A DNA stretch of 40,110 nt from a virus (Duplodnaviria > Heunggongvirae > Uroviricota > Caudoviricetes): the IMG/VR virus record IMGVR_UViG_2897369580_000002, one strand, 5' to 3'. The translations under genes and the position numbers were made by a program. Positions 5,725 through 34,694 of this stretch are shown here, in pieces (position 1 is the stretch's first letter; every line of letters starts with the position of its first letter). The notes under the pieces are model-generated. The model made no database searches. It was not told the origin of the DNA and saw nothing but the letters and a program-made list of their open reading frames with translations.

Positions 5725-5741
5725 ATTACCTTTCAGGTAAT
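5725..5741. promoter_or_regulatory. palindrome ATTACC-N5-GGTAAT (TTACC-N5-GGTAA family, copy 1)
   Basis: ATTACCTTTCAGGTAAT, perfect 6-bp arms; in divergent region between tailspike and the LexA-box gene. Confidence 0.6.
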
Positions 5742-5777
5742 TTGCAAAACGTGCTGGATAGCAAACAAATTATTTGC

Positions 5778-5797
5778 TACTGTATAAATATACAGTT
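5778..5797. promoter_or_regulatory. LexA (SOS) box
   Basis: TACTGTATAAATATACAGTT: CTGT-N8(AT-rich)-ACAG, near-consensus; about 20 bp upstream of the RBS of the 5818 gene. Confidence 0.75.
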
Positions 5798-5817
5798 ATT
5801 GCATGGAGAAGATTAAG

Positions 5818-6075
5818 ATGCAGCAGTATCACTATCCACTGGAAGAGGGATTTACCGAAAGGATTCACACGCCGGGAGGCGTCAGGTCACTGGTGGAGGG
5901 ATCGCACTTGATGAAATTACTCCGGGATCTCGATAAGGATGGATTTAATGTCGATGGCCCACTTGCCGAACTGACTGCACTGATTAACTACGTCACCAGC
6001 TCACAGATGTCTATGCAGGATCTGCAAACACATCTCGACTATTGTGCCGAACAATTACGAAAACAAACCAGATAA
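5818..6075 (+). CDS. small protein homologous to the C-terminal domain of the adjacent antirepressor
   Basis: ATG at 5818 with RBS GGAGAA (alternative ATG at 5803); aligns with the C-terminus of the 6391-7086 product (LMKLLRDLDKDGFNVDGPLAELT vs LMNLLNQLQEDGHDVSGAAAELT; DLQTH vs DIQTH). Confidence 0.6.
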   Translation: MQQYHYPLEEGFTERIHTPGGVRSLVEGSHLMKLLRDLDKDGFNVDGPLAELTALINYVTSSQMSMQDLQTHLDYCAEQLRKQTR

Positions 6076-6106
6076 GGTTTGCAATCACCAAATGGAGTGC
6101 TTATAT

Positions 6107-6121
6107 TTACCTTTGCGGTAA
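6107..6121. promoter_or_regulatory. palindrome TTACC-N5-GGTAA (copy 2)
   Basis: TTTACCTTTGCGGTAAA at 6106-6122. Confidence 0.55.
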
Positions 6122-6390
6122 ATTTACAACGCACTCCTCTTGTGCCATAGTAATCGAGCACTGGCAAAATCCAGTGCCGGGATTGGCGTCCCGGATTACT
6201 AAAAGGCGCATTCACCGCGCAAGCGGTTTTTTTATGCGTATAGCACGGCCACATTCGTATTATGGTGGGCTGTGTGGGGGCACCGAAAGGTGCGCCGGGT
6301 CCTTTTAGCCGGTTACGCCAACCCTGCACAGTTCACCACCAACCGATTGGCGTCGGTAGTGGTGATTAACCAGACTAAAAGGTAACCACT

Positions 6391-7086
6391 ATGACAGCTA
6401 CAAAAAGCACGTCCATTTTTTCTTTCGAATCCCAAGCCGATATACGGGTAATCGTCATTAATGGTGAGCCATGGTTTATCGCTTCAGATGTTTGTCGGGC
6501 TATAGGCATAGCAAACCATCGAGATGCTGTTCGAAAACTTGATGATGATGAGAAGGGCGTCGCTTCAACCGACACCCCTGGCGGTGAGCAAGAATCGATC
6601 ATCATCTCCGAGTCAGGCCTCTACACACTGATCCTCCGCTGCCGCGACGCAGTGACACCAGGCACTATCCCCTACCGCTTTCGTAAATGGGTTACAGGTG
6701 AGGTTCTTCCTCAGATCCGCCGCACCGGAAGTTACATTAAAAACTCGCTCCCGCAGGAAGAACGCATAAAGATGGTTGCCGACCAGGTAGCCAACGCCAC
6801 GGCGTCAGCAGTAATGCAGGCGATGAAGATAGAGAACAAAACCTACAGTGCCCCACTGAAGCCCGGCTACCGCAGCCTGATTCATTCGCCGTCTGGTGTT
6901 CTCGGCCTGACGGAGAACTCACTGCTGATGAATCTGCTGAACCAGTTACAGGAAGACGGGCACGATGTATCGGGCGCGGCGGCGGAGCTGACCACCATGT
7001 TCTGCTACATCGTCGGTGTGAGCAAATGCCTGCGTGATATCCAGACCCACGCGGAGTACATCAACGACAAAGCAGGATTCTTCTGA
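6391..7086 (+). CDS. Bro-N domain antirepressor (Ant-like)
   Basis: N-terminal Bro-N signature (FSFESQADIRVIVINGEPWFIASDVCRAIG); RBS AAGGTAACC; C-terminal domain shared with the upstream small protein. Confidence 0.75.
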   Translation: MTATKSTSIFSFESQADIRVIVINGEPWFIASDVCRAIGIANHRDAVRKLDDDEKGVASTDTPGGEQESIIISESGLYTLILRCRDAVTPGTIPYRFRKWVTGEVLPQIRRTGSYIKNSLPQEERIKMVADQVANATASAVMQAMKIENKTYSAPLKPGYRSLIHSPSGVLGLTENSLLMNLLNQLQEDGHDVSGAAAELTTMFCYIVGVSKCLRDIQTHAEYINDKAGFF

Positions 7087-7158
7087 CGGGCGGCGGCACA
7101 GGGATGTGCCTTTAAATAATTCTGTACAGATTGCAGACCGGGGGTGAATAGCGTACTA

Positions 7159-7173
7159 TTACCTTAAAGGTAA
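7159..7173. promoter_or_regulatory. palindrome TTACC-N5-GGTAA (copy 3)
   Basis: ATTACCTTAAAGGTAAA at 7158-7174, upstream of the 7216 gene. Confidence 0.55.
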
Positions 7174-7215
7174 ACCTGTTTTTATTTTATACCTGTAACT
7201 TACCGGAGATTAAAG

Positions 7216-7542
7216 ATGACAAAACTTGGATTCGTGATGAGAGGTCCGGTAAGAAGCGGAACTCATGCAAAGCGTAGCAAGAGTCGTATTTTTACTGGTA
7301 AGGTTGTAGCACGTAAATCAGCTATTGGCTCGTTCAATAGTGAAAATGCGGCATTGCGCCATATTTTTATCAGCACAAAGCCAAGAGCATCCGCTGATGT
7401 GCATACAATGTCTATTCCTATCACAAAGAATATCAAGCGGATAAAAAAGCTCTCATCTGCAGAATCAAAAGAGATATCTTTCCGCCAGCTTAACTCATTA
7501 GAAACGCATATGAAGGAAGAGGAATTCGATGTTTTTGAGTGA
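7216..7542 (+). CDS. hypothetical basic protein (AT-rich cargo operon, gene 1)
   Basis: ATG with RBS GGAG; Lys/Arg-rich; visibly lower GC than surrounding phage DNA; overlaps next gene. Confidence 0.5.
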   Translation: MTKLGFVMRGPVRSGTHAKRSKSRIFTGKVVARKSAIGSFNSENAALRHIFISTKPRASADVHTMSIPITKNIKRIKKLSSAESKEISFRQLNSLETHMKEEEFDVFE

Positions 7543-8041
7543 GTATAGCGGGAAGGTTATACCTACTGGTGAGTTTAAAACTGATGACTTTCTGATTTCG
7601 CTAAAAGATGCTTTTAAACAACACTGGCGTCATGGTCATCATCCTGATCTGGGAAAAGATACTCTTTTTGAAAGACCAGACGAAGTATTAGGCTTCCATC
7701 TCAGAAAGGTTCATGTCAATATTGGTGAATATGCATCATATTCATACTCATGTACTGAACAGTGTTGGGATGAGTGGTCATATGGATTGATTGATGAACA
7801 AGGAAATTACAGGCCAAAACCAACCAGTAACGCATATCTCATATATGCAGTCAATGAAATAAGAGATGCAGCCTTACTAGCTTATTGGGACCCGCCCGCA
7901 CACACCAAAGCTAACGCAAAAGTTTGGATGGATTCCGTATTGAATTTCACAAAATTATTTCATGAACGAACGAATACAGCTCCACTTAGTAGAAATGTTT
8001 ATCCGTGGGATTATTCGTACAAATCCAAAAAGCCTGCATAG
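7529..8041 (+). CDS. hypothetical protein (AT-rich cargo operon, gene 2)
   Basis: ATG with RBS AAGGAAGAGGAA; start overlaps end of gene 1 (coupled); aromatic and His-rich; no recognisable motif. Confidence 0.5.
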   Translation: MFLSEYSGKVIPTGEFKTDDFLISLKDAFKQHWRHGHHPDLGKDTLFERPDEVLGFHLRKVHVNIGEYASYSYSCTEQCWDEWSYGLIDEQGNYRPKPTSNAYLIYAVNEIRDAALLAYWDPPAHTKANAKVWMDSVLNFTKLFHERTNTAPLSRNVYPWDYSYKSKKPA

Positions 8042-8122
8042 TAGTTTTTTATGGACGAAACAAAAGTCAGTGCTACACTCATTGACGCCACATTGAGGTG
8101 GCTTATAGATGGAAATTTCACA

Positions 8123-8284
8123 ATGAAAAAAGCATTTGCTGCACTGTTCGTTTTGTTGTCTCTGGTAGCTTCAACTCAGGCCTTTGCCGGTCGTTGTCAG
8201 CACGACAGCGACACTGCTGCTGACGGCTCCCGCTGCGGTGGGCGTTCTGCGGATTCCCGCCCGGGTGGCGGTGGCATTCGTTAA
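8123..8284 (+). CDS. small secreted Gly/Ser/Arg-rich peptide with two Cys
   Basis: Internal ATG gives MKKAFAALFVLLSLVASTQAFA signal peptide then ~31-aa mature peptide; weak RBS; alternative TTG/ATG start at 8051 in ORF track. Confidence 0.35.
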   Translation: MKKAFAALFVLLSLVASTQAFAGRCQHDSDTAADGSRCGGRSADSRPGGGGIR

Positions 8285-8306
8285 AAACAAGGCCGCGAAA
8301 GCGGCC
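8281..8306 (-). terminator. rho-independent terminator ending the minus-strand structural transcript
   Basis: GGCCGC-gaaa-GCGGCC hairpin, followed on the minus strand by TTGTTTTTAA. Confidence 0.6.
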
Positions 8307-8307
8307 T

Positions 8308-8319
8308 GTGACATGTCAC
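8308..8319. repeat. 12-bp palindrome GTGACATGTCAC (copy A)
   Basis: Perfect palindrome; identical 12-mer also at 26008-26019 and 28282-28293. Confidence 0.7.
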
Positions 8320-8320
8320 G

Positions 8321-8881
8321 CTACATTGATATATGATTCATAAAGTAGCTTAAAGATTTACTTCCCAGAAAAGAAATTTCTTTTCCTGGATATGTCGCAA
8401 TAATTGAGCATGACTTATCCCCGTTAGAGGTAACAAATCCTGAATAACCTACTTGTTCTTTACCATTTTGTTGCTTGGCTAAAAAGTAGAGGTAGCTTAT
8501 CTTTTTGCCCTCTGGGTAAAACTCTGCCAAACCAGTATCGGTGATTGAATATTTTATTCTCCCGCCTTGAGTAACGTTTTCCATCTCAAGTTTAGCTATG
8601 TCTTTTCTGTTGTATTCAGCATTGATTTTCCTTTCGAAATCAATGTTGTTTTCAAATGAGTAGGAAGCAACAGTCTGAATAGATGGGAACACGTTTATCT
8701 GGATGCCCCCACAGTCGGCACAGGTATAAAGGTATGAATCAGATGGAATCCCCATAAAAGAAAACTGAGTTACCTTAAATTTATCGCTATCTCCAAAGTA
8801 TTGAAGTTCGCATTTAACATTTTGCCCTGCAAAAGAAAATGCAGACATCAATATTGAAACAAAAAATATAATTGCCTTCAT
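8321..8881 (-). CDS. secreted protein of unknown function (AT-rich, end of structural operon)
   Basis: ATG; signal peptide MKAIIFFVSILMSAFSFAG; AT-rich coding; directly follows the 849-aa internal protein. Confidence 0.55.
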   Translation of the reverse strand: MKAIIFFVSILMSAFSFAGQNVKCELQYFGDSDKFKVTQFSFMGIPSDSYLYTCADCGGIQINVFPSIQTVASYSFENNIDFERKINAEYNRKDIAKLEMENVTQGGRIKYSITDTGLAEFYPEGKKISYLYFLAKQQNGKEQVGYSGFVTSNGDKSCSIIATYPGKEISFLGSKSLSYFMNHISM

Positions 8882-8883
8882 TA

Positions 8884-11433
8884 TTATTTACCTAGCATGA
8901 ACTGCGATGGTGGGATCAGAAAGTCGTTCCCCTGCTCACGCTCAACACGGCGCTGATAACGCTCAAGAGAGCCTGGGTCAAGGGCATCTTGTATCCGGTT
9001 CAATATTAAACCATTCATCGCCGTACGAAGCCAGAACACGTTGAGGAATGGCGTATTGTCAAGTGCCGTGCGATACCAGTCACCCAAATCTGCATCCCCT
9101 CTCGTGGTCTGCTGGAGCAGCGTGATAATGCTGTCAGCGTTCGATGCTGCTGGCCCCATTAGCGACGTAACCGGCCCGGCCCCCATGCGGTTGACCTCAC
9201 CAAACATGAAGTCACCCAAGATGCCAAGACCGCCCCCCTGAGATGCGGCTGCGAGAAACGTCTTGGCATCTGCCGGGCGTGGTGTTTGCCCTTTCAGCAT
9301 GAGTTTTGACTGCATGGAGATATAACCAAACATAGTCGCCCAGACAAAGAGGTTTGCAGCACCAAGGAAAGCCCCCTTCCCGTTACGTAGCAGCGCATTC
9401 GTCAGCGATCCGGTTTTCGACTCACCAAGCCCAGCAGGAATATAACCACGCCCGAATACTTCGCGTCCTAGTACGTTCTGCATGAAGCTTGCAGTGAACG
9501 ATTTGTACTGACCAGCGAATCGTATTGCTTCCCCAGCCACCGTTCCTGGCACCGTGCCCATCTTCATAAACGCCTGCGTGCGATCGCCAGGCTCTGACAT
9601 GGCGATATTCAGACGGTCAAGGATGTAGCCGCGCAACTGCCCTTCCAATTGATCGCGTGCGTCAGCGATAGCGCGCTGCGTTGGTTTGATCCCCTTACTC
9701 TCTACATAACCGGCAATCACTTCGTCAGGCACGCCGCGGATGCCGCTGGTCGTCATGAACTTACGACCTTCGCTATCGGCCATGTCCATGTTGCGAAAAA
9801 TTTCCCACTCACGTTCGCCAATACCGTGCAGATCCAGCACGCGTCGCAGGTCTTCCGGTAGCCGCGCATGAGACTGGTCAGCATTCTTTGCAAGCCAGTT
9901 GGTTATCATCATGGCGTTGCTGTTGCGACCGCTCTCGGTCCAGAAGTTCATGAGGTTGTACTTAAAGAAAAGCTGCTGCGCGCGACCAAGCTTTCCATTC
10001 AGCGTGTCATCACCAGATATGCGCCGGATGATTTCCTGCGTCATGGAGTCGGAATAAACTCCGATAGAGGAAAGGATCTCTTTCTGCTCCGCGCTGTTGT
10101 AACGCGTGAAGCGGCCTCTCATAGCACCAAGCAACGCCTGCATAAAATTCTGCCCTTGGTAGCGCATCTCGGTAGCGGCGATAGGCACGTCGTTAAACGA
10201 TGAGATTACCGCGCCACCAAGTTGGCTCATACGCAACCAGCCGCGTACAGCCGCCGACGCATTGGCCCAGCCTACGCTGCCAGGAATATTTAGCGAGCCG
10301 TCAACCTGCGGCATTACGGTACGGTTAATGCGACGCACCTTCGTCATGTAGTCAGCCAACGCTGCCGGTCTTCCGGATTTGCTGATATCTTCAGCAATGG
10401 CGTCCGTCAGGTACTTAAACATGTTCTGTGGGTTAGTGCCCAGTACGCGCATCATGCCCGTTGTGCGGGCAGCGCTGTTTAAGCCACCAAACAGCGCTTC
10501 TCGCAGGCTGCCGGTGCCGAATTGCTGGTTGTACTCGTGCCACGAGATACCATCTTTGAAGTGCAAAATTCGCTCTTGGCTGGCGCGTTTAGCTGCGTTC
10601 GCCGATCCCTTAAAGCCATTCATCCAATCGGGCTTTTCAGATGTAAGATGCACGCCGGAAGCCAGCCCGTTATAAATGTTACGCATGAACTGCTCGCGGT
10701 CAGCCACGCCGTCAAAAGTGCGCTCATCAAGGCGCGGGAGAATAGCATTTCGCCATGCTTCATAACCTGCGGCGCGGATCTTCATGATGTCGTGTGACTG
10801 GCGCACTATATAGCCCGGCTCTTTGCGTATCCATGCCCCGGCGCGGTTCTCATCAATGCGCGCAGTTTCCTGCCATTTCATGATGATTTGTGCAGCGCTT
10901 ACGGATTGCTTTGTCATACCGTCAGTTGACTGCCCGCGCCCTATGCGCCACATTGCATCGGCAATTTCCCGGTCATTGCTGCCGCTGGCGATGAATTGCA
11001 CCAGCCCGGCACGGTCAAAATCGTAGTTGATACCGGAATGATACTTGCCGCGCAGTTGCGCCACCTCCGAAGATACCGACCGGCGGGCGCCGGTACGCGC
11101 ATCGTTGCGGCCAACCAGCATTGCTTCAAGCCCGATATCCGGGCGGTCTTTCCAGATAGTACGAAGCTCTCTAAGTCGTTGTGCGGCAATACGGGCGTCG
11201 ATTGCCTTATTGCGAGCCTCAATCTGTTTTGCCAGCATATCGGCATTGCTCAGTTCTTCCGCTGCGCGCATCGCGGCCTCTTCCAGAGACAGCGCCTCAT
11301 TGGTCGCCAGAATTCGCCTAGTGGTGTCGTTCATGTCACGCACCAGCGACTCCATCTCATCGGAAGAAAGCTCGCGACCAGCGGCAGCATTTACACTGCG
11401 CTCGCACTGCGTCAAAAATTCGTTTGCTGCCAT
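8884..11433 (-). CDS. large internal virion / ejection protein
   Basis: ORF-track start at 11436 is GTG; ATG at 11433 with RBS GGGGGA overlaps the stop of the upstream gene (ATGA); large mostly helical protein in the structural block. Confidence 0.6.
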   Translation of the reverse strand: MAANEFLTQCERSVNAAAGRELSSDEMESLVRDMNDTTRRILATNEALSLEEAAMRAAEELSNADMLAKQIEARNKAIDARIAAQRLRELRTIWKDRPDIGLEAMLVGRNDARTGARRSVSSEVAQLRGKYHSGINYDFDRAGLVQFIASGSNDREIADAMWRIGRGQSTDGMTKQSVSAAQIIMKWQETARIDENRAGAWIRKEPGYIVRQSHDIMKIRAAGYEAWRNAILPRLDERTFDGVADREQFMRNIYNGLASGVHLTSEKPDWMNGFKGSANAAKRASQERILHFKDGISWHEYNQQFGTGSLREALFGGLNSAARTTGMMRVLGTNPQNMFKYLTDAIAEDISKSGRPAALADYMTKVRRINRTVMPQVDGSLNIPGSVGWANASAAVRGWLRMSQLGGAVISSFNDVPIAATEMRYQGQNFMQALLGAMRGRFTRYNSAEQKEILSSIGVYSDSMTQEIIRRISGDDTLNGKLGRAQQLFFKYNLMNFWTESGRNSNAMMITNWLAKNADQSHARLPEDLRRVLDLHGIGEREWEIFRNMDMADSEGRKFMTTSGIRGVPDEVIAGYVESKGIKPTQRAIADARDQLEGQLRGYILDRLNIAMSEPGDRTQAFMKMGTVPGTVAGEAIRFAGQYKSFTASFMQNVLGREVFGRGYIPAGLGESKTGSLTNALLRNGKGAFLGAANLFVWATMFGYISMQSKLMLKGQTPRPADAKTFLAAASQGGGLGILGDFMFGEVNRMGAGPVTSLMGPAASNADSIITLLQQTTRGDADLGDWYRTALDNTPFLNVFWLRTAMNGLILNRIQDALDPGSLERYQRRVEREQGNDFLIPPSQFMLGK

Positions 11434-13130: not shown

Positions 13131-13131
13131 G

Positions 13132-19838: not shown

Positions 19839-20161
19839 CACTCACCTCCGTTACCGTACAGAGTTTCAGCCGCTGATTTTTCTACATCCCCGGAAACAGG
19901 AGCGATCGCCATATCAGTGATCTGCAGATCGGCGCTGCGATTAACGCCATCGTCAGTTTCTCTGGCAGACAGGCCTCGGATAACAGCCTTTGCAGTTATC
20001 ATCACTTCTGTTCCGACGCCCTGAGGTTGCGCCTTCAGCTTATTCAATGTGTCGTTATTCAGCGTGATGCACAGCCCCCACGGGTATTCATCGCGAGTTC
20101 TGGTTTCTCCGCTCTCATCCTGGTAGCTGTCAGTGCCGGTTTTGAGGTTTACGAGTTCCAT
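19838..20161 (-). CDS. small virion-module protein
   Basis: ATG at 20161 with RBS AGGAG (ORF-track start at 20167 is GTG). Confidence 0.45.
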   Translation of the reverse strand: MELVNLKTGTDSYQDESGETRTRDEYPWGLCITLNNDTLNKLKAQPQGVGTEVMITAKAVIRGLSARETDDGVNRSADLQITDMAIAPVSGDVEKSAAETLYGNGGE

Positions 20162-22743: not shown

Positions 22744-22745
22744 GA

Positions 22746-23042: not shown

Positions 23043-24718
23043 TGTGATTGCCCACCCTGACCACTAACTGCATTCGCCATAGCTGTCAAAACACTCGGAT
23101 CCGAAGTTTTAGCTTCGCTTAGCGTCTTGGCACCCTGTGCCGCCGCCATCCCCACCGCCATCATTTGTTGTTGCTGTTGCTGCTGTGCCCGTTGCTGGCG
23201 AGCCTGCTCAACCTGTTCCTGCGGAACAATGACGGTTGGAGACACTCCGGACATATCAGCGAATGCATCGATCGCCTGATCAACGTTGAGTTTGTCGAGA
23301 GCTTCTGGTTTCGCTTGCGCAAGTTGACCAATGAAGTTAACCGTGGACGCCAGACTGGACAGGCCGATAGACTTCTGCGCCTGAGCCATGACGGAAATGT
23401 ATTCGACCTTCAGGGGCATACCTTCCATCACGTCTGGCGGTGGCGGCAGCATGTTTTTACGCACCATCATCGAGAAAGCGCGGTCAATGAGAGGATTAAG
23501 ACATTCGTCGTTCAGGCGCTCCAGAACCGGCCCCAACATCAGAAGTTTTTCTTCTTTCATTTCGATCACCGCTTCAACAGGCATCGAGCGGGTATTGATG
23601 TTCTGCAACATCATGAACAGATCGACAAAGTAGGCGCTGTTAATGATTTGACGAGTGTCCTGAATGTCTGCTACCAAATCTGCTGTACTGGGGTTAACCA
23701 GATAAGCAGGCCTGAAGCCATCCTGACCAGTAATCTGATCGATATACGTGATGTCGCCAGGAAGAAGGGAGGCGCGCTGATTCTTGAGGGAAGTCGGAGC
23801 AACCATCGGCGGATTGGTGGCTTTATCAATCAACTGCGACTTGCGCTTCTGGAGAAGCTGCAATGCCTTAACAGGTCCAAGCGCCAGCATACCCGGGCAT
23901 GATGATCCATAAACATCTTCGCCGTTAACTTCCCAGCGCGGAGCCATAATTGGAAACTCATCAAATCCGGACTCACGCAACAACTTGTCGTTATCGCCAC
24001 CAACCTCGTAATAAACCGATTTGAATGGCTTGTTCTTGCTATCCAGCTTCGATGTATCGCGGTCAATGTTCGGGTAAACCGAATGCATCACGTCAATCCA
24101 CTTCTCGTAGGTGCCGCTTTCCCACATGCTTTTTACGGATTCGCTGACGTTATTTAGCCCGAACTCCTGAACAAGCTGACGAACAGTCATAGAGAACTTG
24201 CGAAAACAGGTGTCCACACTGCCACGAGGTGAGTTAGCCAGGTAGTAACTGCCTATCGGGAATGGCATTGTGCGAATGATGTCCTCGTCATCCTCCAGCA
24301 CCGCCATTGCACCAGTGCTGTATGTGCCGAGGCTTCCGTATAACTGCGGAAGAGACTGGTAGAGATTCGACTTATTGAACATATCGTTCATGCGGTTCTG
24401 CACCGCCTCGAGCCACAACTTAACAGGACCATAATCCATCATTTCAGGATCTGGCGTAGCCAGGCGAAACCACGGACGCGCAGGGCTTGTGATGCCTGAC
24501 ATCATGCCGCTGGCGAGAGTGCGCGCCGCCATAGTCCCGGTCGAATCAATAATGCGTGTATTGCGTCGATCGTTACGGTTGACCTCAGAAGTCAGAAAGC
24601 GGGAACCACGCGGGTTGATGTAATCACTCAACTCGCGCCAGTGCGGCTCGAACGACTGACGCTCGCTTTCAAGTTGTGCGAACTGTTTGTTCAATCGCTC
24701 TTTAGTTGTTTCCGCCAT
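23039..24718 (-). CDS. portal protein
   Basis: 559 aa directly downstream of terminase region; poly-Gln tract near C-terminus; ATG with RBS GGAG. Confidence 0.8.
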   Translation of the reverse strand: MAETTKERLNKQFAQLESERQSFEPHWRELSDYINPRGSRFLTSEVNRNDRRNTRIIDSTGTMAARTLASGMMSGITSPARPWFRLATPDPEMMDYGPVKLWLEAVQNRMNDMFNKSNLYQSLPQLYGSLGTYSTGAMAVLEDDEDIIRTMPFPIGSYYLANSPRGSVDTCFRKFSMTVRQLVQEFGLNNVSESVKSMWESGTYEKWIDVMHSVYPNIDRDTSKLDSKNKPFKSVYYEVGGDNDKLLRESGFDEFPIMAPRWEVNGEDVYGSSCPGMLALGPVKALQLLQKRKSQLIDKATNPPMVAPTSLKNQRASLLPGDITYIDQITGQDGFRPAYLVNPSTADLVADIQDTRQIINSAYFVDLFMMLQNINTRSMPVEAVIEMKEEKLLMLGPVLERLNDECLNPLIDRAFSMMVRKNMLPPPPDVMEGMPLKVEYISVMAQAQKSIGLSSLASTVNFIGQLAQAKPEALDKLNVDQAIDAFADMSGVSPTVIVPQEQVEQARQQRAQQQQQQQMMAVGMAAAQGAKTLSEAKTSDPSVLTAMANAVSGQGGQSQ

Positions 24719-24939: not shown

Positions 24940-25029
24940 ATCAATGACTCCGTACGCAATTAAATTATTACCAATTTAACCACATATGATTTATTTATCG
25001 TAGAAGGTTGACATTTGACGCGCGAATTA

Positions 25030-25044
25030 TTACCTTTCAGGTAA
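25030..25044. promoter_or_regulatory. palindrome TTACC-N5-GGTAA (copy 4)
   Basis: ATTACCTTTCAGGTAAC at 25029-25045; TTGACA hexamer at 25008-25013 just upstream. Confidence 0.55.
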
Positions 25045-25366: not shown

Positions 25367-25443
25367 GTGGTATTAGCTCAGTTGGACAGAGCAACCGCCT
25401 TCTAAGCGGTTGGTCGCAGGTTCGAATCCTGCATGCCACGCCA
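25367..25443 (+). tRNA. tRNA-Arg (anticodon TCT), phage-encoded
   Basis: Hand-folded cloverleaf: acceptor GTGGTAT/ATGCCAC, D-arm GCTC..GAGC, anticodon stem ACCGC/GCGGT with loop CTTCTAA, T-arm GCAGG-TTCGAAT-CCTGC, discriminator G, encoded CCA. Confidence 0.9.
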
Positions 25444-26050: not shown

Positions 26051-26103
26051 GCTTTGTTTTATCCTCATCAGAGGATATCAACGACATTATCCCCACCAGC
26101 GGA

Positions 26104-27579: not shown

Positions 27580-28172
27580 TGATTACCATCCTGACGTTCT
27601 TTGAGTCGCTTCCTGGCTGCTGCTATGCGATCAGCAATTGTCACATTCACATTAACATCCAGACGTTCTTTGAACGCGTTGACATCAACATGCTTACCAA
27701 TCAGCTCAAGGTTCTTCACCTTGTCAGGCCATTTAATTTTTTTGAGGATTGTCTCTATCGAATCCTCGTTCATGTTCATGATGGTCGATGACAGATCAAA
27801 GCCACTAAGCGTAGTGCGCCAGATTTTCGGCCACTCACGGATTGGTTTAAGGCTCCCATCGTCGTTGAGGATGTCGATCACGTCCATCTGGTCGATCTCC
27901 ACCAGGCGCATGAGAACGTAATCAGCACTGACGCGCATTCGTTTGTTGCGCTCCTCCATCAACTCGGCAATCCGTTTTTGAATGCGTTCATCGCGCATCA
28001 TGACGCTGGCTTTAACTGCCGCTGTATTTGGGGAGAATCCTGCGTTAATCGCTGCCTGAGTCTGGTTTTCAGGCGTTTTGATGTATGACTGGCAATAAGC
28101 CTCCTGCATTGCTGTTAGTGGCTTAAATTGCGTTGATTTGCGTTTATAGGTTTTAGGTTCAGCAGGCATCAT
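27576..28172 (-). CDS. terminase small subunit
   Basis: Small-terminase-like helix-turn-helix region (AMQEAYCQSYIK...QTQAAINAGFSPNTAAVKAS); start placed at internal ATGATG (28172/28169) because the ORF-track N-terminal 32 codons are encoded by palindromic GGTAATAGTTACC repeats; alternative start 28268. Confidence 0.7.
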   Translation of the reverse strand: MMPAEPKTYKRKSTQFKPLTAMQEAYCQSYIKTPENQTQAAINAGFSPNTAAVKASVMMRDERIQKRIAELMEERNKRMRVSADYVLMRLVEIDQMDVIDILNDDGSLKPIREWPKIWRTTLSGFDLSSTIMNMNEDSIETILKKIKWPDKVKNLELIGKHVDVNAFKERLDVNVNVTIADRIAAARKRLKERQDGNQ

Positions 28173-28189
28173 AACCACCGTGGTAATAG

Positions 28190-28204
28190 TTACCGTTTTG
28201 GTAA
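28190..28204. promoter_or_regulatory. palindrome TTACC-N5-GGTAA (copy 5) within nested GGTAATAGT(T)ACC repeats
   Basis: GTTACCGTTTTGGTAAT at 28189-28205; flanked by GGTAATAGTTACC (28182-28194) and GGTAATAGTACC (28200-28211). Confidence 0.5.
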
Positions 28205-28281
28205 TAGTACCATGCAAAATAAAGCCGCCATAGTTGGCGGCAGTATCCAAAACCGTCAAATTCATCATGCATAATCTACTC

Positions 28282-28293
28282 GTGACATGTCAC
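28282..28293. repeat. 12-bp palindrome GTGACATGTCAC (copy C)
   Basis: Overlaps stop codon of the 28290-28637 gene, upstream of terminase small subunit. Confidence 0.7.
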
Positions 28294-28637
28294 ACTATTA
28301 ATTTCGTTTCATGCCAGCCTTTAGTCACCCAGCATTGCGAGTCACCATTACACGGGCATGAATTAACTGGAACTCTCTCGCCGCACTTACCGCAACGTTT
28401 TCTGCTGATCGATTTTATACGCCCGCGCACACGTGCATCATCCTGGCGGATCAGCAGCGCGATGTACTCGGCCATTTCATAGGGATCGCGACCAGGGCGC
28501 CGGGCGGCGCAGTTCCGCGCCAGCATTTCCTGCTCCTGCTTATCCAGCACCAGTTCAATTTTGCGCTCACCGGCGGCGGACTGCCGAGCGCGCTGCGCGG
28601 CTTTGCGTTCTGCGGGGGATTTAGCCACGAATCGCAC
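28290..28637 (-). CDS. hypothetical protein with C-terminal Cys-rich (zinc-ribbon-like) motif
   Basis: GTG start; basic helical N-terminus; C-terminal CGKCGERVPVNSCPCNGDSQC; directly upstream of the terminase genes. Confidence 0.5.
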   Translation of the reverse strand: MRFVAKSPAERKAAQRARQSAAGERKIELVLDKQEQEMLARNCAARRPGRDPYEMAEYIALLIRQDDARVRGRIKSISRKRCGKCGERVPVNSCPCNGDSQCWVTKGWHETKLIV

Positions 28638-29651: not shown

Positions 29652-29652
29652 A

Positions 29653-30012
29653 TCACTCTCCTTTGATGCCAATGTTTACAGCTTGGCAAGCCTCTCTGAG
29701 CACCCAGTCAACAGCATCCTTCCATGCTCCTGTTTCGACTGGCGGATTCTCACGCTTTACCTGTTCATAAAAGCGCACGGCTTTAACCAGTCCTTCTGAT
29801 GTCACCGGGACTGGCGGGCCGATGAATAAGGCCTGAATTTCATAGTTCGGCCTGTCGTTACAATCCTCTTTTGTCGGTACATATTTCCAGTCACCAGCCC
29901 ACGGCTTCCCCTGAAAGTCTGTAACGTCTTTTTTCACGTAGCGATATCGCCATGCAACTGGTTTTGCCTGCCCTGCCGTTTCATGCCCTTCCTGATAATT
30001 AATCTCGCTCAT
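29653..30012 (-). CDS. hypothetical protein
   Basis: ATG start; 119 aa; coupled to flanking small genes. Confidence 0.45.
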   Translation of the reverse strand: MSEINYQEGHETAGQAKPVAWRYRYVKKDVTDFQGKPWAGDWKYVPTKEDCNDRPNYEIQALFIGPPVPVTSEGLVKAVRFYEQVKRENPPVETGAWKDAVDWVLREACQAVNIGIKGE

Positions 30013-30185
30013 TCATCGCCCCACTCATCACAATATGCTTCGACCGGAGTTTTTCCTGCTTCATAATCATCACGCCATGCTTCAGCATCAGCAGCACTGC
30101 CACCACGTAACTCTGCATAGTCCATTAACAGTTCATGCCATGCTTCAAAACTGACGTTGTATTTAGTTGAACCAAAATCAGCCAT
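30009..30185 (-). CDS. small hypothetical protein (below ORF-track length cutoff)
   Basis: ATG at 30185 with RBS GAGGAAGAG; 58 codons; stop overlaps the next ATG (ATGA). Confidence 0.3.
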   Translation of the reverse strand: MADFGSTKYNVSFEAWHELLMDYAELRGGSAADAEAWRDDYEAGKTPVEAYCDEWGDE

Positions 30186-30265
30186 TTTGCTCTTCCTCTT
30201 CGTCTTTTATTTCGTGATATGAGTAATTGCAGTAGTTAAAAATCGCGGCATCGACAAGCTCTCTG

Positions 30266-30580
30266 TTAGTCATTCTTTTTCCGCTCACTGGCTGCCTCCT
30301 TTACTGGGCTTTCGAATGTATCAAACTCAAACAACTTAACTACGTCATCAAACAGGACATAATCGCCATCAGAATCTTCAGTCATGTCAGCGCCACAATC
30401 CTGACCGAACGAGTCACAACCATCCATATCAAGCTCGTATCGCTTCAGGTTTGCGATATTTGATAAATTCAGCGCCAGTACAGCCAGGTCATAAACCTCA
30501 TCAGCGGTATACCCGGCACCATGCCCATACATTTCAATGCGGGATATGATTTCTTCTACACGTTGTTTTGTGATCGTCAT
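30266..30580 (-). CDS. hypothetical acidic protein
   Basis: ATG with RBS AGGAAGGTGAG; 104 aa. Confidence 0.45.
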   Translation of the reverse strand: MTITKQRVEEIISRIEMYGHGAGYTADEVYDLAVLALNLSNIANLKRYELDMDGCDSFGQDCGADMTEDSDGDYVLFDDVVKLFEFDTFESPVKEAASERKKND

Positions 30581-30582
30581 TT

Positions 30583-31107
30583 TTACTCACCTTCCTGTTC
30601 TTCCAGAAAAATACGCATAGCCTCAAGCATCTCTTCGGTGTCATACGGTGACAACTTGTCACGCAGGATGTGTTCAATGCTGTTAATGAACTTGCGGATT
30701 GCTTTGCGTTCAATTTCAGCCAGAAAAGCATCGGTGGCTGGAGTTTCGCTGTGGTGCAGGGCATCGTTGATAATCATTGCAGCAACTCCGGCCTGCCCTG
30801 CATCCGTGACCGACACATGCTCAAGAGTTACAGCCATTGCATGTTTCAGCCCCGCATTCTCCGCTGCCAGCGCCGAAAACTTCTCGTGTGCCAACTTAAC
30901 AGCTGCATCAGCCTGCTTAATTGACTCAATCGCTTTCTGCTGGTCTTCGGCCAGCGCATTAGCACGCACCAGTTGCACTTCCAGTTGCGTTGCCAAATCG
31001 CTGATCAGCTTTGCCACACTGCGCATATCAACGGCACCACATTCTGCTTTCAGTTCCGAAGCCATCTCATGCCCGGCGGCAACTAACCCTTTGATATTAC
31101 TTTCCAT
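30583..31107 (-). CDS. hypothetical protein
   Basis: ATG with RBS GAGGGTAAAG; 174 aa, helical. Confidence 0.45.
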   Translation of the reverse strand: MESNIKGLVAAGHEMASELKAECGAVDMRSVAKLISDLATQLEVQLVRANALAEDQQKAIESIKQADAAVKLAHEKFSALAAENAGLKHAMAVTLEHVSVTDAGQAGVAAMIINDALHHSETPATDAFLAEIERKAIRKFINSIEHILRDKLSPYDTEEMLEAMRIFLEEQEGE

Positions 31108-31119
31108 CTTTACCCTCGC

Positions 31120-31128
31120 TTATCCACA
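31120..31128. promoter_or_regulatory. DnaA-box-like 9-mer TTATCCACA
   Basis: Exact match to the DnaA box consensus in the intergenic region upstream of the 30583-31107 gene; tandem TTGATAAC repeats at 31136-31152 nearby. Confidence 0.3.
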
Positions 31129-31168
31129 TAACTTATTGATAACATTGATAACTAAAAAGATCGTCGAT

Positions 31169-31513
31169 TCAGAACTCTTCGATATTCCAGCCACCACCTG
31201 CTTTCTTTGGTTTAACCGTTACCCCGATGATTCGGAACGGATACTGATCTGCGGCGACTTTGGTTTTCACCCTGGCGTCGTCGGTCCAGAAACCTTTCAC
31301 TTCGTGCAGTTCCATCTCGCCGGTGGCGAGCATCACAGCAAAATCGGGCGTATAGAACGTGTTGTCAGCTAACCGCAGCTTGATACCCTCAAATCGATAC
31401 CAGACGATTTCTCCTGCACGTTTACGCAGCTCAAGGTGCTGGCAATACGCAGATTCTGTTTTGTTCATCTGACCTGTTTTGAGTCGACCAAGAGCCTGTA
31501 TCTGTTTTCTCAT
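31169..31513 (-). CDS. DUF1064-like phage protein (putative nuclease)
   Basis: ATG with RBS GAGGTAAATC; pattern ...ELRKRAGEIVWYRFEG...FYTPDFAV...ELHEVKG resembling DUF1064 phage proteins. Confidence 0.5.
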   Translation of the reverse strand: MRKQIQALGRLKTGQMNKTESAYCQHLELRKRAGEIVWYRFEGIKLRLADNTFYTPDFAVMLATGEMELHEVKGFWTDDARVKTKVAADQYPFRIIGVTVKPKKAGGGWNIEEF

Positions 31514-31516
31514 GAT

Positions 31517-31531
31517 TTACCTCTGAGGTAA
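31517..31531. promoter_or_regulatory. palindrome TTACC-N5-GGTAA (copy 6)
   Basis: TTTACCTCTGAGGTAAT at 31516-31532, 4 nt upstream of the DUF1064 start codon (one arm doubles as Shine-Dalgarno). Confidence 0.55.
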
Positions 31532-31578
31532 TTAAAAACCACATAAGACACGAAATCAATAGATTTTAGAATATTTTA

Positions 31579-31593
31579 TTACCTAACAGGTAA
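31579..31593. promoter_or_regulatory. palindrome TTACC-N5-GGTAA (copy 7)
   Basis: ATTACCTAACAGGTAAT at 31578-31594, perfect 6-bp arms. Confidence 0.6.
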
Positions 31594-31630
31594 TTGTCGA
31601 GGCGTAAAAAAATGCGCTATCGCGCTGGTA

Positions 31631-32416
31631 TTACTTGATAAATCCTGCCGCCTTTCCCCGCCTGTATTCCTCCATCAGCCACTGCGCCGGTGTTATTCCC
31701 CCAAGGGTGGCGGCGTTAGGCATGCACCCGAAACTTCGCCCTGGTGGATGGTAAACGTCTCTCCCTGTGTCCGGAGGCGTACTCATGGGCTCTGGCTTTG
31801 CCTGTATGCTGATCACCGGATCGGGTATCTGCTGTCCGGAAGCCACCTTTTTCGCCCAATCATCGAGCAGCCTGCGTGCGTGTTTCTCAACCTCAATCTC
31901 GCTAAGCTGGCGCTGATACATTGCACGGCGGGTATCACATACGACCCAGTACATAACCGGATGTCGCCACGGGAATCTTTCGGGACCACCAGGATATAAA
32001 CTTTTTTCCTTGCTGTACCGGTGAAACTCCGCCATCACATCGTCAATGGTGACGCCAAGAACCATCTTGCTGTCTTTGCACCACTTGATAAATTGCCCTG
32101 GAGACGGCCAGAACGGAGATTCACTGGCGCGGGCGTGGCGCATACCAGCAGAAACCTGTTCACGGGTTCGGATCCCCCCTTCGGCAAACGCAGCAATCCA
32201 CTGCTGTTTTGCAGCAACTTCCTGCTCTGGCGTCTTCAGGTTGGTTACCACTGCCGCCGGAAACAGTTGTTTCAGCTGTTTAAAAAGGGCATCAACAAGC
32301 CTCTCTGCTGACATGTTCACCACATTGTCATTGTTGACGTACTGATGCTCATAACCTGACATGCGAGAAAGGGCTTCTCCGTCACGGTTTTGTATCGCGG
32401 TAAAAACGTTGTTCAC
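31631..32416 (-). CDS. replication protein P-like (helicase loader)
   Basis: Matches recalled lambda P motifs (FWPSPGQFIKWC vs FLPSPGQFVAWC; GIRTREQVSAGMRHAR vs GITTMEQVNAGMRVAR); likely GTG start at 32416 with RBS GGGAGG overlapping the O-like stop. Confidence 0.75.
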   Translation of the reverse strand: MNNVFTAIQNRDGEALSRMSGYEHQYVNNDNVVNMSAERLVDALFKQLKQLFPAAVVTNLKTPEQEVAAKQQWIAAFAEGGIRTREQVSAGMRHARASESPFWPSPGQFIKWCKDSKMVLGVTIDDVMAEFHRYSKEKSLYPGGPERFPWRHPVMYWVVCDTRRAMYQRQLSEIEVEKHARRLLDDWAKKVASGQQIPDPVISIQAKPEPMSTPPDTGRDVYHPPGRSFGCMPNAATLGGITPAQWLMEEYRRGKAAGFIK

Positions 32417-33204
32417 AAGAAATCCTCCCATGCTTCAGGGCTGTTCCAGTGCGGAACGTTGTTATCAGGTAATGTTGATTGCTTCTGTCTGCTAATCTGC
32501 AGCCGCCTTGCCAGCTTCTGCTCCCACTGTGCCTGATGGTATGCCTTACCCTCAGCCATCCAGTAAATTCTGAACTCTGCAAGTTCCTGTGCCGTTGGCA
32601 GACTGTCCAGGTAGATCCCCTGCAATGAGCTTTTCCGAAGAAAGTCATCTGATGGCTGCCATTGTTCATGCATGACAAATTTGCCTAATTGCCCTGGCCC
32701 ACCAGGAGGAACAAAGTTATTCATCACGGCGTTGTTTGCGCCGGGGTCATGAGGCACAGAATCCCCGCTTTTTGTCCTGCTCTCCCTCTCTTGGTTAAAT
32801 GACTGGTTATATGACTGGTTCTGGATCCCGTTTTTGGGATCATTCAACATCCCGTTTTTGGGTATATTCCCGTTTTCGGTAACATTACCGTTTTCGGGTT
32901 CATTGCCCCCCTCCCGGTTGCCTTTAATGTTCCCGTTTTTGGTTATATTAAGAGAGAAAACCCGCACTCTTTTTGTCGCTCCCTTTCTCTCTCCGGTATC
33001 TGAAATAAGCCCCATTTTCATGAGCGATATAAGCCCGGCCTGCACGGTTTTTTTATTCAGGCAAGTGTCTTTAACGAGGCGTTCTATGCTGGGGTAGCAG
33101 AGGTTATATTCATCGGCTCTGTCAGCCATCGAGAGCAGTATGAGCTTTAATGATGAGCTACCTGGATCTGTCTCCCAGGCCCAATCTGTTGCATGTCTGC
33201 TCAT
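32413..33204 (-). CDS. replication initiator (lambda O-like) with internal iterons
   Basis: ATG with RBS GGAG; N-terminal winged-helix-like region; central repetitive peptide (NGNIKGN..NGNVTENGNIPKNG) encoded by iteron repeats; upstream of P-like gene. Confidence 0.65.
   Translation of the reverse strand: MSRHATDWAWETDPGSSSLKLILLSMADRADEYNLCYPSIERLVKDTCLNKKTVQAGLISLMKMGLISDTGERKGATKRVRVFSLNITKNGNIKGNREGGNEPENGNVTENGNIPKNGMLNDPKNGIQNQSYNQSFNQERESRTKSGDSVPHDPGANNAVMNNFVPPGGPGQLGKFVMHEQWQPSDDFLRKSSLQGIYLDSLPTAQELAEFRIYWMAEGKAYHQAQWEQKLARRLQISRQKQSTLPDNNVPHWNSPEAWEDFL
32825..32946. repeat. iteron array (candidate origin of replication) inside the O-like gene
   Basis: Five direct repeats of about 16-18 bp with core CCCGTTTT(T/C)GG at 32826, 32850, 32869, 32888 and 32931. 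Confidence 0.65.
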
Positions 33205-33219
33205 GATTAATCTCCGCTA

Positions 33220-33420
33220 TCAGCTTGAGTGTTGTGGGGAGGAATTAATCATGATCTGCTTAATCTCTGCCCTGATGCGACGGTTTGATTCCATGGTGCA
33301 CTCAACACAGTGTCCGTTGTAAACCCAGCGTTCACTGTCATGTCCGTGCTTACATGGTTTTCCGGTGTAGTAGCGTTTAAGTCCGCGCTTTGCGGCATCA
33401 ATACGTGTAATGATTTCCAT
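33220..33420 (-). CDS. small protein with Cys/His motif (CKHGH...CVEC)
   Basis: Probable ATG at 33420 (MEIITRIDAAKRG...); ORF-track start 33483 adds a hydrophobic extension; between Cro-like and O-like genes. Confidence 0.4.
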   Translation of the reverse strand: MEIITRIDAAKRGLKRYYTGKPCKHGHDSERWVYNGHCVECTMESNRRIRAEIKQIMINSSPQHSS

Positions 33421-33500
33421 GGTAAGCCCTGTTATTAGTATTGGGATTACGGTTATTTTGTGCTGACACAAAAAAAAGATCAACCATATTTGGTTTTTTA

Positions 33501-33515
33501 TTACCTTTAAGGTGC
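33501..33515. promoter_or_regulatory. degenerate TTACC-N5-GGTGC palindrome (copy 8)
   Basis: ATTACCTTTAAGGTGCG at 33500-33516; right arm GGTGC instead of GGTAA. Confidence 0.4.
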
Positions 33516-33570
33516 GAATAGATATGAAAAGACCGCCGGGTGGCGGTCTACAGAGGGGTGTAGCTGGATA

Positions 33571-33801
33571 TCATGAGTAGAAGAAGTATGCCAGTTCTGC
33601 TTTTGAGCGCAACCATTGTCTTGTTTTACAGGCTTTAAAAAGCCCATTCATCAATACTTTACCTGGCATTTTGCGCTTACCTGTTAAGTGAGTCTGGATA
33701 TAGTGACTCGTCGTTCCGGCTTCCTGTGCGAAGGCTTCACGCTCATCCGGAGTAAGTGCAAGCCAGTGCTTTTTGAAATCGAAATGTCCGTTATCGCTCA
33801 T
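33571..33801 (-). CDS. Cro-like small HTH regulator (first gene of rightward/early-replication operon)
   Basis: 76 aa, divergent from the repressor gene; HTH-like segment EAFAQEAGTTSHYIQTHLTG. Confidence 0.5.
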   Translation of the reverse strand: MSDNGHFDFKKHWLALTPDEREAFAQEAGTTSHYIQTHLTGKRKMPGKVLMNGLFKACKTRQWLRSKAELAYFFYS

Positions 33802-33813
33802 AGCTATTGCCTG

Positions 33814-33837
33814 ATATTTATTTCAGATAATAAATAT
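33814..33837. promoter_or_regulatory. AT-rich inverted repeat in the immunity-region divergent promoter
   Basis: ATATTTATT-tcagat-AATAAATAT, perfect 9-bp arms. Confidence 0.5.
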
Positions 33838-33868
33838 TCACCCATAAGGTAACAAAAATCAAGGATAG

Positions 33869-33883
33869 TTACCTATGAGGTGC
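33869..33883. promoter_or_regulatory. degenerate TTACC-N5-GGTGC palindrome (copy 9)
   Basis: GTTACCTATGAGGTGCA at 33868-33884. Confidence 0.4.
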
Positions 33884-33885
33884 AT

Positions 33886-33900
33886 TTACCCGTTGGGTAA
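33886..33900. promoter_or_regulatory. palindrome TTACC-N5-GGTAA (copy 10)
   Basis: TTTACCCGTTGGGTAAT at 33885-33901, between divergent Cro-like and repressor genes. Confidence 0.55.
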
Positions 33901-33955
33901 TATTGCTTTAAATTGAATCATCTACTGATTCATATATGAGGCGATTTTCCAGAAA

Positions 33956-34540
33956 ATGAAAAGTATCCAGGACGTCCGCAGGCAAAATCTCAACGACTTG
34001 ATCGACCGTGAATTCAATGGTGTTCAGACGCGGATGGCAGAAAAACTTGGAACTCAGGCAAATCTGGTAAACCGCTGGGCTCTTGGCAAGAAGGTTATCG
34101 GCGACCAGGTTGCGCGAAAAATTGAAGCTGCCGCCAATAAACCACGTAACTGGCTTGATATCGATCGCTCGCTTTCTCAGGAAGGTTTTCAGCCTGTCGG
34201 CCCAAGCGACATTGGTCAGCTGGCGGCTCACAACCTGGAACGCTGGATGAGCGAAAGCCGCGACCTTTCAACACAGGGAAAACTTCACCGCGCATCCGGC
34301 GTCGCCCAGGTGACAATCAGCCGCCTGTTAAACAATGAGGTCAGCGTTTCCATTTCCACCCTGGAGAATGTTGCATCCGCATTCGGGCGTCACGGCTATG
34401 AATTACTGATTCACCCGCACGACCCTGCGACCATCAACTATGACCGCTCGCGCTACGCATTGTTACCCGAAACCGAGAAAGCAAAGATCGAAAGTTATAT
34501 TGAATTTGTCATCAACCAGAACGAAAAAAACAAACAATAA
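33956..34540 (+). CDS. prophage repressor candidate with tandem HTH domains, no autocleavage domain
   Basis: Two HTH-like regions (QTRMAEKLGTQANLVNRWALGKK and GKLHRASGVAQVTISRLLNNEVSVS); no Ala-Gly / Ser-Lys peptidase S24 signature seen; own terminator. Confidence 0.55.
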   Translation: MKSIQDVRRQNLNDLIDREFNGVQTRMAEKLGTQANLVNRWALGKKVIGDQVARKIEAAANKPRNWLDIDRSLSQEGFQPVGPSDIGQLAAHNLERWMSESRDLSTQGKLHRASGVAQVTISRLLNNEVSVSISTLENVASAFGRHGYELLIHPHDPATINYDRSRYALLPETEKAKIESYIEFVINQNEKNKQ

Positions 34541-34560
34541 AATCATACTTTTCAGTAAGT

Positions 34561-34586
34561 AAGCCGCCTTCTGGCGGCTTTTTTAT
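34561..34586 (+). terminator. rho-independent terminator after repressor gene
   Basis: AAGCCGCC-ttct-GGCGGCTT followed by TTTTATT. Confidence 0.8.
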
Positions 34587-34597
34587 TGCCTATACTA

Positions 34598-34612
34598 TTA
34601 CCTAATAGGTAA
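34598..34612. promoter_or_regulatory. palindrome TTACC-N5-GGTAA (copy 11)
   Basis: ATTACCTAATAGGTAAT at 34597-34613, perfect 6-bp arms. Confidence 0.6.
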
Positions 34613-34632
34613 TTTTTTTTAACTCATATCTA

Positions 34633-34659
34633 TTGACATCAAACCAAATACGCATAATT
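34633..34659 (+). promoter_or_regulatory. sigma70-like early-left promoter
   Basis: TTGACA (34633-34638), 15-16 bp spacer, CATAAT/ATAATT (34654-34660); operator-like palindrome begins at 34660. Confidence 0.55.
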
Positions 34660-34660
34660 A

Positions 34661-34675
34661 TTACCTCAACGGTAA
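34661..34675. promoter_or_regulatory. palindrome TTACC-N5-GGTAA (copy 12), overlapping early-left promoter -10/+1
   Basis: ATTACCTCAACGGTAAC at 34660-34676. Confidence 0.6.
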
Positions 34676-34694
34676 CAGACCGAGGTAACAAGTT

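Follow-up and report, generated by a model that had tools for sequence, protein, structure and literature searches.

TTACC-N5-GGTAA dyads dispersed over a Uetakevirus prophage are very probably operators of the repressor Rep

Introduction

Temperate phages of the genus Uetakevirus (phiV10/epsilon15-like) carry a short palindrome, TTACC-N5-GGTAA (often ATTACC...GGTAAT), in the DNA between their genes, and here we describe this dyad family in a prophage of the genus, IMG/VR virus record IMGVR_UViG_2897369580_000002. The window, that is, the whole 40,110-bp stretch of DNA that was analysed, is ~97% identical to phiV10, phiv142-3, TL-2011b, ZX5 and PAS61, and its orientation is opposite to that of the phiV10 record. 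The closest described systems are those of epsilon15 and SPC32H. The RefSeq record of epsilon15 has seven features annotated as 'protein_bind: repressor / lysogeny', each of which is a TTACC-N5-GGTAA match, so that dispersed repressor sites, including those before packaging and virion genes, are already on record for the genus. For the SPC32H repressor, Rep, the reported domain order is a DNA-binding domain at the N-terminus, a dimerisation domain in the middle and, at the C-terminus, a tetramerisation domain to which the antirepressor also binds (PMC9986798). Rep is further reported to bind palindromic DNA as a tetramer (PMC9638917). Furthermore, in ZX5, whose Rep is 100% identical to that of the window, overexpression of Rep removed free phage and lowered holin and endolysin mRNA by >99.9% (PMC9782041). 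The ZX5 result is consistent with an operator model, without separating direct from indirect repression.

Repressor sites dispersed over a phage genome are also known from P1 and L5. The operators of P1 are asymmetric 17-bp sites read by a monomer of the repressor C1, a protein of unrelated fold, and the stoperators of L5 are asymmetric, orientation-dependent and mostly located inside transcribed regions, where they stop elongation. Lambdoid repressors are not known to act at operators of late, packaging or accessory units; control of these units is, to our knowledge, left to an antitermination cascade. A preliminary description of the window had proposed that its dyads form a genome-wide operator regulon comparable to those of P1 C1 and L5, with hairpins sequestering ribosome-binding sites as an alternative.

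Results

Number, location and make-up of the dyads

A pattern search found ten exact TTACC-N5-GGTAA matches in the window (Table 1), at all ten positions that had been listed (the copy listed at 5725, the A of ATTACC, starts at 5726 as a site), whereas 0.02 were expected from dinucleotide-preserving shuffles and 0.02 to 0.10 under Markov nulls of order 1 to 4 (0.08-0.10 for orders 3 and 4). The previously described variants with a GGTGC arm were present as well, at 33501 (TTACCTTTAAGGTGC) and 33869 (TTACCTATGAGGTGC), with two mismatches each. One-mismatch copies at 28172 and 33838 were counted as family members because of their position and their conservation in relatives, which brings the family to 14 sites (10 exact and four variants) over 8 regions. 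All 14 are contained entirely in non-coding DNA, as had been stated for the dyads, although such DNA makes up only 6.9% of the window; the chance of all 10 exact sites being non-coding is ~2e-12. The window flank 1-1160 contains none.

The only further matches with one mismatch or fewer, at 5494 and 8505, lie inside genes and were treated as chance, ~0.6 such matches being expected. Matches with two mismatches numbered 27 against 10.5 expected, an excess that is mostly compositional, and those outside the family numbered 25 against 18 ± 4 under the order-3 null. We rejected the two-mismatch excess in coding DNA as a source of extra operators, because the common pentamer explains most of it. 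Note that TTACC/GGTAA pentamers outside the family occur 114 times over the whole window against ~50 expected from dinucleotide composition, and that this surplus is accounted for by higher-order (codon-level) composition.

When the sites of the window and SPC32H were pooled, the core ACC...GGT was invariant in 27/27 sites, 52 of 54 symmetrised counts had A or T as the central base, and the preferred flanks were those of A-TTACC...GGTAA-T. The centres of the two TTACC half-sites are 10 bp (one helical turn) apart with an A/T-rich centre between them, in likeness to 434, where the central bases are A/T-rich and have no sequence-specific contact. Between window sites, the spacers differ and the flanks share no similarity beyond promoter elements. 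Conserved arms beside a variable spacer had been taken, in the preliminary description, to argue for recognition by a protein rather than for shared ancestry.

Conservation in related phages

Exact dyads numbered 8 in phiV10, 11 in epsilon15, 10 in SPC32H and 9 in the Klebsiella phage BUCT711, with 0.4-0.65 matches expected per genome at one mismatch or fewer. They stand at orthologous places in these four genomes despite Reps that are only 42-45% identical, the shared map positions being terS, gp3, ant/tail fibre, OL, OR and the post-replication pair. Between the relatives from E. coli, Salmonella and Klebsiella, the spacers and flanks have diverged. Alignments of four orthologous intergenic regions from five genomes (A2, A3, A5 and A6) showed invariant arms and variable spacers. 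In the region of 25030 (A3), the upstream flank was unalignable and the site arms were invariant; the whole post-replication block (A5) and the early-left promoter together with the arms of OL1 (A6) were kept in all five genomes.

The spacing of neighbouring sites was also conserved. In all five genomes, the post-replication pair is 62 bp and the OL pair 62-63 bp apart. The OR cluster keeps its spacings of 17 bp and 30-31 bp (epsilon15 33341/33358/33388, SPC32H 34390/34407/34437, BUCT711 6402/6419). Both sites of the 17-bp OR pair are exact in epsilon15, SPC32H and BUCT711. The 18-bp terS pair was likewise found in phiV10 (87/105) and epsilon15 (12/30). Single sites have orthologs in phiV10 (33112) and BUCT711 (6032) for 33501, with one mismatch, and in phiV10 (20497), BUCT711 (17377) and TL-2011b (1521) for 6107. 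Note that the exact dyads of epsilon15 outside its seven annotated sites (24704, 33341, 33358 and 35969) include both exact OR sites. In addition, one-mismatch sites ~50 bp upstream of int are kept in epsilon15, phiV10, SPC32H and BUCT711; the window does not extend to the corresponding position.

Rep and a related repressor outside the genus

Rep of the window (Table 1) matched the crystallised SPC32H Rep (PDB 5D50 and 5D4Z, E=4e-42; 5D50_A over residues 1-190) and is ~42% identical to epsilon15 gp38 and SPC32H Rep. Its homologues, in 37 records, showed 42-100% identity, with residues 1-70 as the best conserved part and an NLVNRW helix that is invariant in four Uetakevirus Reps. Domain searches gave a Pfam HTH_3 match at residues 106-147 and a weak YdaS-like helix-turn-helix (HTH) match at 21-61. 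The protein had been described as a tandem-HTH repressor; judging from position in the solved homologue, however, the second HTH would fall in the dimerisation domain (PMC9986798), and the earlier label thus misdescribes the way in which Rep reads DNA.

A protein search with the 74-aa DNA-binding domain returned only near-identical fragments. The only match of Rep outside the genus was cI of the Pseudomonas siphophage PseuP_224, with 39% identity over residues 4-68 and a C-terminal domain that is longer than and different from that of Rep. PseuP_224 has four TTACC-N4-GGTAA sites (19922, 19961, 20797 and 20823; three exact and one with one mismatch, against 0.11 expected), two on each side of cI. 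The same half-site, in combination with another spacing and another oligomerisation domain, is what is expected if the shared N-terminal domain reads TTACC.

Sites around rep and their register with promoters

The sites flank rep in OL/OR fashion, with 34598 and 34661 on one side and 33838, 33869 and 33886 on the other. Thus, the copy noted at the early-left promoter, over its -10 and +1 (34661), and the copy noted between the divergent repressor and Cro-like genes were both found, the latter as part of a cluster of three. Two kinds of register with promoters were seen. At five promoters (34661, 31517, 6107, 7159 and 28190), the last base of the -10 hexamer is also the first T of the site, and the site lies within the -35/-10 spacer at two more (31579 and 33838). 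Four operator-bearing promoters are directly preceded by a terminator, so that each unit would be insulated and separately repressible.

Table 1. Coordinates of the dyad sites and associated features. Positions refer to the window unless epsilon15 is named; exact dyads were located by pattern search of the window.
Feature	Position	Strand	Remarks
OL1, exact	34661..34675		overlaps -10 and +1 of early-left promoter TTGACA(34633)-17-AATTAT (ends 34661)
OL2, exact	34598..34612		63 bp from OL1, right after rep terminator 34561-34580
OR site, exact	33886..33900		rep/cro divergent region
OR site, 2 mismatches, GGTGC arm	33869..33883		17 bp from 33886
OR site, 1 mismatch	33838..33852		within spacer of leftward cro promoter TTGTTA-17-TATTAT, 33855-33827 (-)
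Degenerate site, 2 mismatches	33501..33515		between cro terminator (33549-33530) and gp40 homologue
Post-replication pair, distal, exact	31579..31593		fills spacer of TCGACA-16-TAAAAT (-)
Post-replication pair, proximal, exact	31517..31531		62 bp from 31579; abuts -10 of TTGATT-17-TTTAAT
Site before terS, exact	28190..28204		directly after extended -10 TGgTACTAT (-), itself following gp49 terminator
Second terS site, 1 mismatch	28172..28186		18 bp from 28190; overlaps terS Shine-Dalgarno (GGTGGTTATgATG) and start
gp3/portal-side site, exact	25030..25044		between gp3/portal late box and divergent tRNA-Arg/p03 unit
Tailspike-side site, exact	5726..5740		between tailspike late box and LexA-controlled ant
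isrK/C4/Bro-N site, exact	6107..6121		abuts -10 of TTGCAA-17-TATATT
Cargo site, exact	7159..7173		abuts -10 of TTGCAG-17-TACTAT, ahead of swappable cargo cassette 7216-8284
Rep, prophage repressor, 194 aa	33956..34540	+	100% identical to phiV10 p40 and ZX5 ORF21 repressor
Cro-like small regulator	33571..33801	-	epsilon15 gp39 homologue; divergent from rep; 100% identical to phiV10 p41
Ant, small antirepressor	5803..6075	+	homologue of SPC32H ant, epsilon15 gp19 and phiV10 p24
LexA box, near consensus	5778-5797	+	TACTGTATAAATATACAGTT; just ahead of ant
isrK small RNA	6158-6233	+	Rfam, 77.9 bits
C4 antisense RNA	6258-6343	+	Rfam, 77.7 bits
Bro-N gene	6391-7086		directly downstream of isrK and C4
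Late box, 24 nt	5674..5697	-	TCATATRTGGTT-N5-GGTAATA; before tailspike gene; invariant in alignment A2
Late box, second copy	24966..24989	-	before gp3/portal
tRNA-Arg(UCU), anticodon TCT	25367-25443	+	followed by p03 gene; divergent unit beside 25030
epsilon15 annotated repressor site	12-27		before terS; ortholog of window 28190
epsilon15 annotated repressor site	2931-2947		before gp3 and portal gene; ortholog of window 25030
epsilon15 annotated repressor site	19895-19911		between gp19 and tail fibre gene; ortholog of window 5726
epsilon15 annotated repressor sites, OL	32479-32494, 32554-32570, 32616-32632
epsilon15 annotated repressor site	35906-35922		after replication genes

Contact with Shine-Dalgarno sequences was restricted to 2 of the 14 sites. 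At 31517, the DUF1064 gene takes its Shine-Dalgarno sequence (GAGGTAAatcATG) from the promoter-distal arm, a dual role that had been noted before, and at 28172 the promoter-distal arm likewise supplies that of terS. Translation of terS probably begins at the ATG(ATG) that follows site 28172 (window 28167-28172, minus strand), as in epsilon15; with the farther upstream start of the phiV10 annotation (224 aa), both operators would be inside terS.

Late box and the packaging and virion genes

The claim that dyads stand in front of the terminase, portal, tailspike and cargo genes needs to be divided. The terS sites conform to it. On the other hand, the portal and tailspike sites are upstream of another conserved element, which we call the late box, and beside divergent units. 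The window, epsilon15 and BUCT711 each carry the late box exactly twice, 26-52 nt ahead of the start codons of gp3 and the tailspike gene. It contains a GGTAAT half-site but is an element separate from the Rep dyad. As a sigma-70 promoter it was rejected, given that no acceptable -35/-10 was present, and we therefore kept it as a candidate for an activator-dependent late promoter, which it probably is.

Among the cargo sites, 7159 does head the cargo cassette, whereas 6107 heads the isrK-C4-BroN module. In the region before the lysis genes (3087-3158), no Rep site was found, unlike in epsilon15, which has one at 24704. The window prophage is also without conversion genes before its lysis genes.

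Discussion

Dispersed operators of Rep

The proposal of a genome-wide operator regulon for the phage repressor is supported by the OL/OR layout, the overlap with promoters, the conservation, the epsilon15 annotation and the half-site shared with PseuP_224, and we consider it highly probable, on the comparisons above, that the dyads are operators of Rep, a member of the epsilon15 gp38 / SPC32H Rep family. Operators would then be present at practically all transcription units of the phage: two at the early-left promoter, three in the rep/cro divergent region, two at the post-replication promoter pair, two at terS, and one each at the gp3/portal - tRNA-Arg region, the tailspike - ant region, the isrK-C4-BroN module and the cargo cassette. 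Two N-terminal HTH domains would read the two TTACC half-sites of a dyad, and bound Rep would exclude RNA polymerase, because the -10 runs into the first T of the site at five promoters and the site fills the spacer at two. The pairs at 62-63 bp (six turns) and the clusters at 17-18 and 30-31 bp suggest that one tetramer, or neighbouring tetramers, probably hold two sites. In a lysogen, a single protein would thus directly silence early, middle, packaging and accessory units, and induction would proceed via the LexA-controlled small Ant, as reported for SPC32H. The LexA box ahead of ant is the sole such box in the window and is kept in all five aligned genomes.

Several observations weigh against this assignment or limit it. 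No heteroimmune relative, with another repressor specificity, was found; every Rep-homologue phage examined keeps the same arms. No promoter is evident at 33501, which may be a roadblock or a relic. The sites at 25030 and 5726 are 28-40 bp upstream of the late box and not over it, and, because they also stand beside divergent units, their target promoter is ambiguous between the late box side and the divergent unit. Finally, by analogy with lambda, Rep probably has to share the OR sites, if not others, with the Cro-like protein, which matched PHROG 35 'transcriptional repressor' (E=5.6e-13).

The alternative that fares best is that the outlying sites, those outside the immunity region, are bound mainly by another phage factor (the Cro-like protein, a gp49-like regulator encoded at 28290-28637, or a late activator) for temporal control of the lytic cycle. 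The window does encode several further small regulators, Cro and repressor use common operators in lambdoid phages, and the late box has the GGTAAT half-site in common with the dyad. However, the outlying sites match the OL and OR sites in sequence and length and were given to the repressor by the epsilon15 annotators, and the half-site is found again, along with the Rep-type DNA-binding domain, in a Pseudomonas phage that is unrelated. We thus regard this alternative as unlikely.

It is still less probable that the dyads act as RNA, that is, as hairpins sequestering ribosome-binding sites or as processing or stability signals. The 19-mers can fold, and the overlap with Shine-Dalgarno sequences at 31517 and 28172 would fit such a role, but folding is weak (-1.1 to -6.2 kcal/mol), and the variant arms (TCACC, GGTGC and TAACC) break the pairing without compensation. 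Across genera it is the arm sequence itself that is invariant, not merely the capacity to pair. Moreover, 12 of the 14 sites are away from any ribosome-binding site, and at the promoters whose -10 runs into the site, the transcript would begin inside the site and lack the 5' arm.

Recognition of the dyad by a host transcription factor, or by a replication or packaging protein, appears just as improbable. P22, which is without this repressor, carries TTACCAGATCGGTAA together with a one-mismatch copy at a distance of 24 bp (32861-32899) inside its annotated replication origin, suggesting that similar dyads can serve other proteins. Nevertheless, only a single copy in P22 is exact, whereas Uetakeviruses have 8-11, and the window sites are not iteron-like but stand at promoters and flank rep, with none in coding DNA or in the 1-1160 flank. 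Lastly, chance or composition, for which the general surplus of TTACC/GGTAA pentamers might speak, and a small mobile repeat spread by shared ancestry are effectively refuted by ten exact and exclusively non-coding sites against at most 0.1 expected under every null, with differing spacers and flanks dissimilar beyond promoter elements.

Comparison with known systems

Taking the dyads as Rep operators, the window prophage agrees with epsilon15 and SPC32H in the dyad itself, the map positions, the homologous repressor and the Ant/LexA induction module. It differs from epsilon15 in that its half-sites favour TTACCT, whereas the OL and OR sites of epsilon15 favour TTACCA, and in having two OL sites where epsilon15 has three. 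Epsilon15 is also without the isrK-C4-BroN module and the cargo cassette, the sites of which are extra in the window prophage, and its record annotates 7 sites though 11 exact dyads are present. The gain over that record is confirmation in a phiV10-type prophage and a finer map. What is new, though incremental, is the register with promoters, the constancy of the pair spacing and the operators at the isrK-C4-BroN and cargo units, as well as homology breakpoints right after operators and the half-site shared with a Pseudomonas phage.

The likeness to P1 C1 that had been suggested stands in part. As in P1, a single repressor would act at operators dispersed over many units rather than at one immunity region plus a cascade, and an operator heads a C4-RNA/antirepressor module (Op51 at immI, c4-icd-ant, in P1; 6107 in the window). 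However, the window sites are symmetric dyads, and Rep, which has HTH_3/Cro-C1-type matches and forms tetramers, is unrelated to C1, so that the resemblance is functional only and not one of ancestry. The suggested likeness to L5 stoperators is weaker. Many short copies of a repressor site over the early and late regions of a temperate phage are common to both, and a roadblock could act at 33501, 28172 and 31517, given their location downstream of promoters. By contrast with the sites of L5 gp71, those of the window are palindromic, most of them overlap or abut a -35, -10 or +1, and none is inside a gene, so that they do not qualify as stoperators.

With the lambdoid phages (lambda, 434 and P22), the window prophage shares dyad operator clusters that flank the repressor gene and the divergence of rep and cro. 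Unlike lambdoid repressors, Rep has no S24 domain that RecA could cleave, and its inactivation is by Ant (PMC9638917). Direct control of nearly every unit by a single tetrameric repressor would replace a lambda-style cascade, and the accessory cassettes and the P1-like antirepressor module would be among the units under its direct control. PseuP_224 cI resembles Rep in its homologous N-terminal DNA-binding domain and in TTACC/GGTAA half-sites that flank the repressor gene; it differs in the 4-nt rather than 5-nt spacer, in its C-terminal domain and in that the sites stand only beside cI and are not dispersed.

Accessory units and possible module boundaries

The site at 6107 heads a P1 immI-like isrK-C4-BroN antirepressor module. 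Since the prophage has this module in addition to the LexA-controlled Ant, it carries two antirepressor systems. At the cargo site 7159, the window (7080-7260) and TL-2011b (2494-2680) are near-identical until 3 bp past the site and then diverge (alignment A4); the genes downstream of the breakpoint differ and are YafO-like cassette variants. For the cargo genes, PADLOC and NCBIfam gave no matches. Likewise, homology with epsilon15 in the 31517 block (window 31505-31640 vs epsilon15 35850-35995) stops at the following ATG, after which the window has a DUF1064 gene and epsilon15 a RuvC-like gene.

Because homology ends within a few bases of 7159 or at the ATG after 31517, we tentatively suggest that a block of operator plus promoter may act as a portable 'socket' that marks module boundaries, and that a dozen dispersed sites may have frozen the specificity of the repressor; this extension is possible but doubtful. 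If the first part is true, recombination at such blocks would swap cargo genes, which would fall under Rep control automatically. If specificity is frozen, cross-immunity is predicted across host genera, as Reps only 42% identical would read one half-site in phages of E. coli, Salmonella and Klebsiella. The operator map could be of use in engineering phiV10-type reporter phages, in predicting lysogen-silent cargo genes and in predicting immunity between Uetakeviruses of these three hosts.

Further features of the window

The left flank 1-1160, on the far side of the Rz gene, has a match in phage TL-2011b as well and, judging from its sequence, may be phage-borne cargo rather than host DNA; one open reading frame (ORF) in it has a weak YiaD/OmpA-like match. 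The tRNA-Arg gene beside 25030 overlaps, on the opposite strand, an ORF that is annotated as hypothetical protein p04 in phiV10. The p04 ORF is probably spurious, and SPC32H annotates a tRNA-Arg in the same place.

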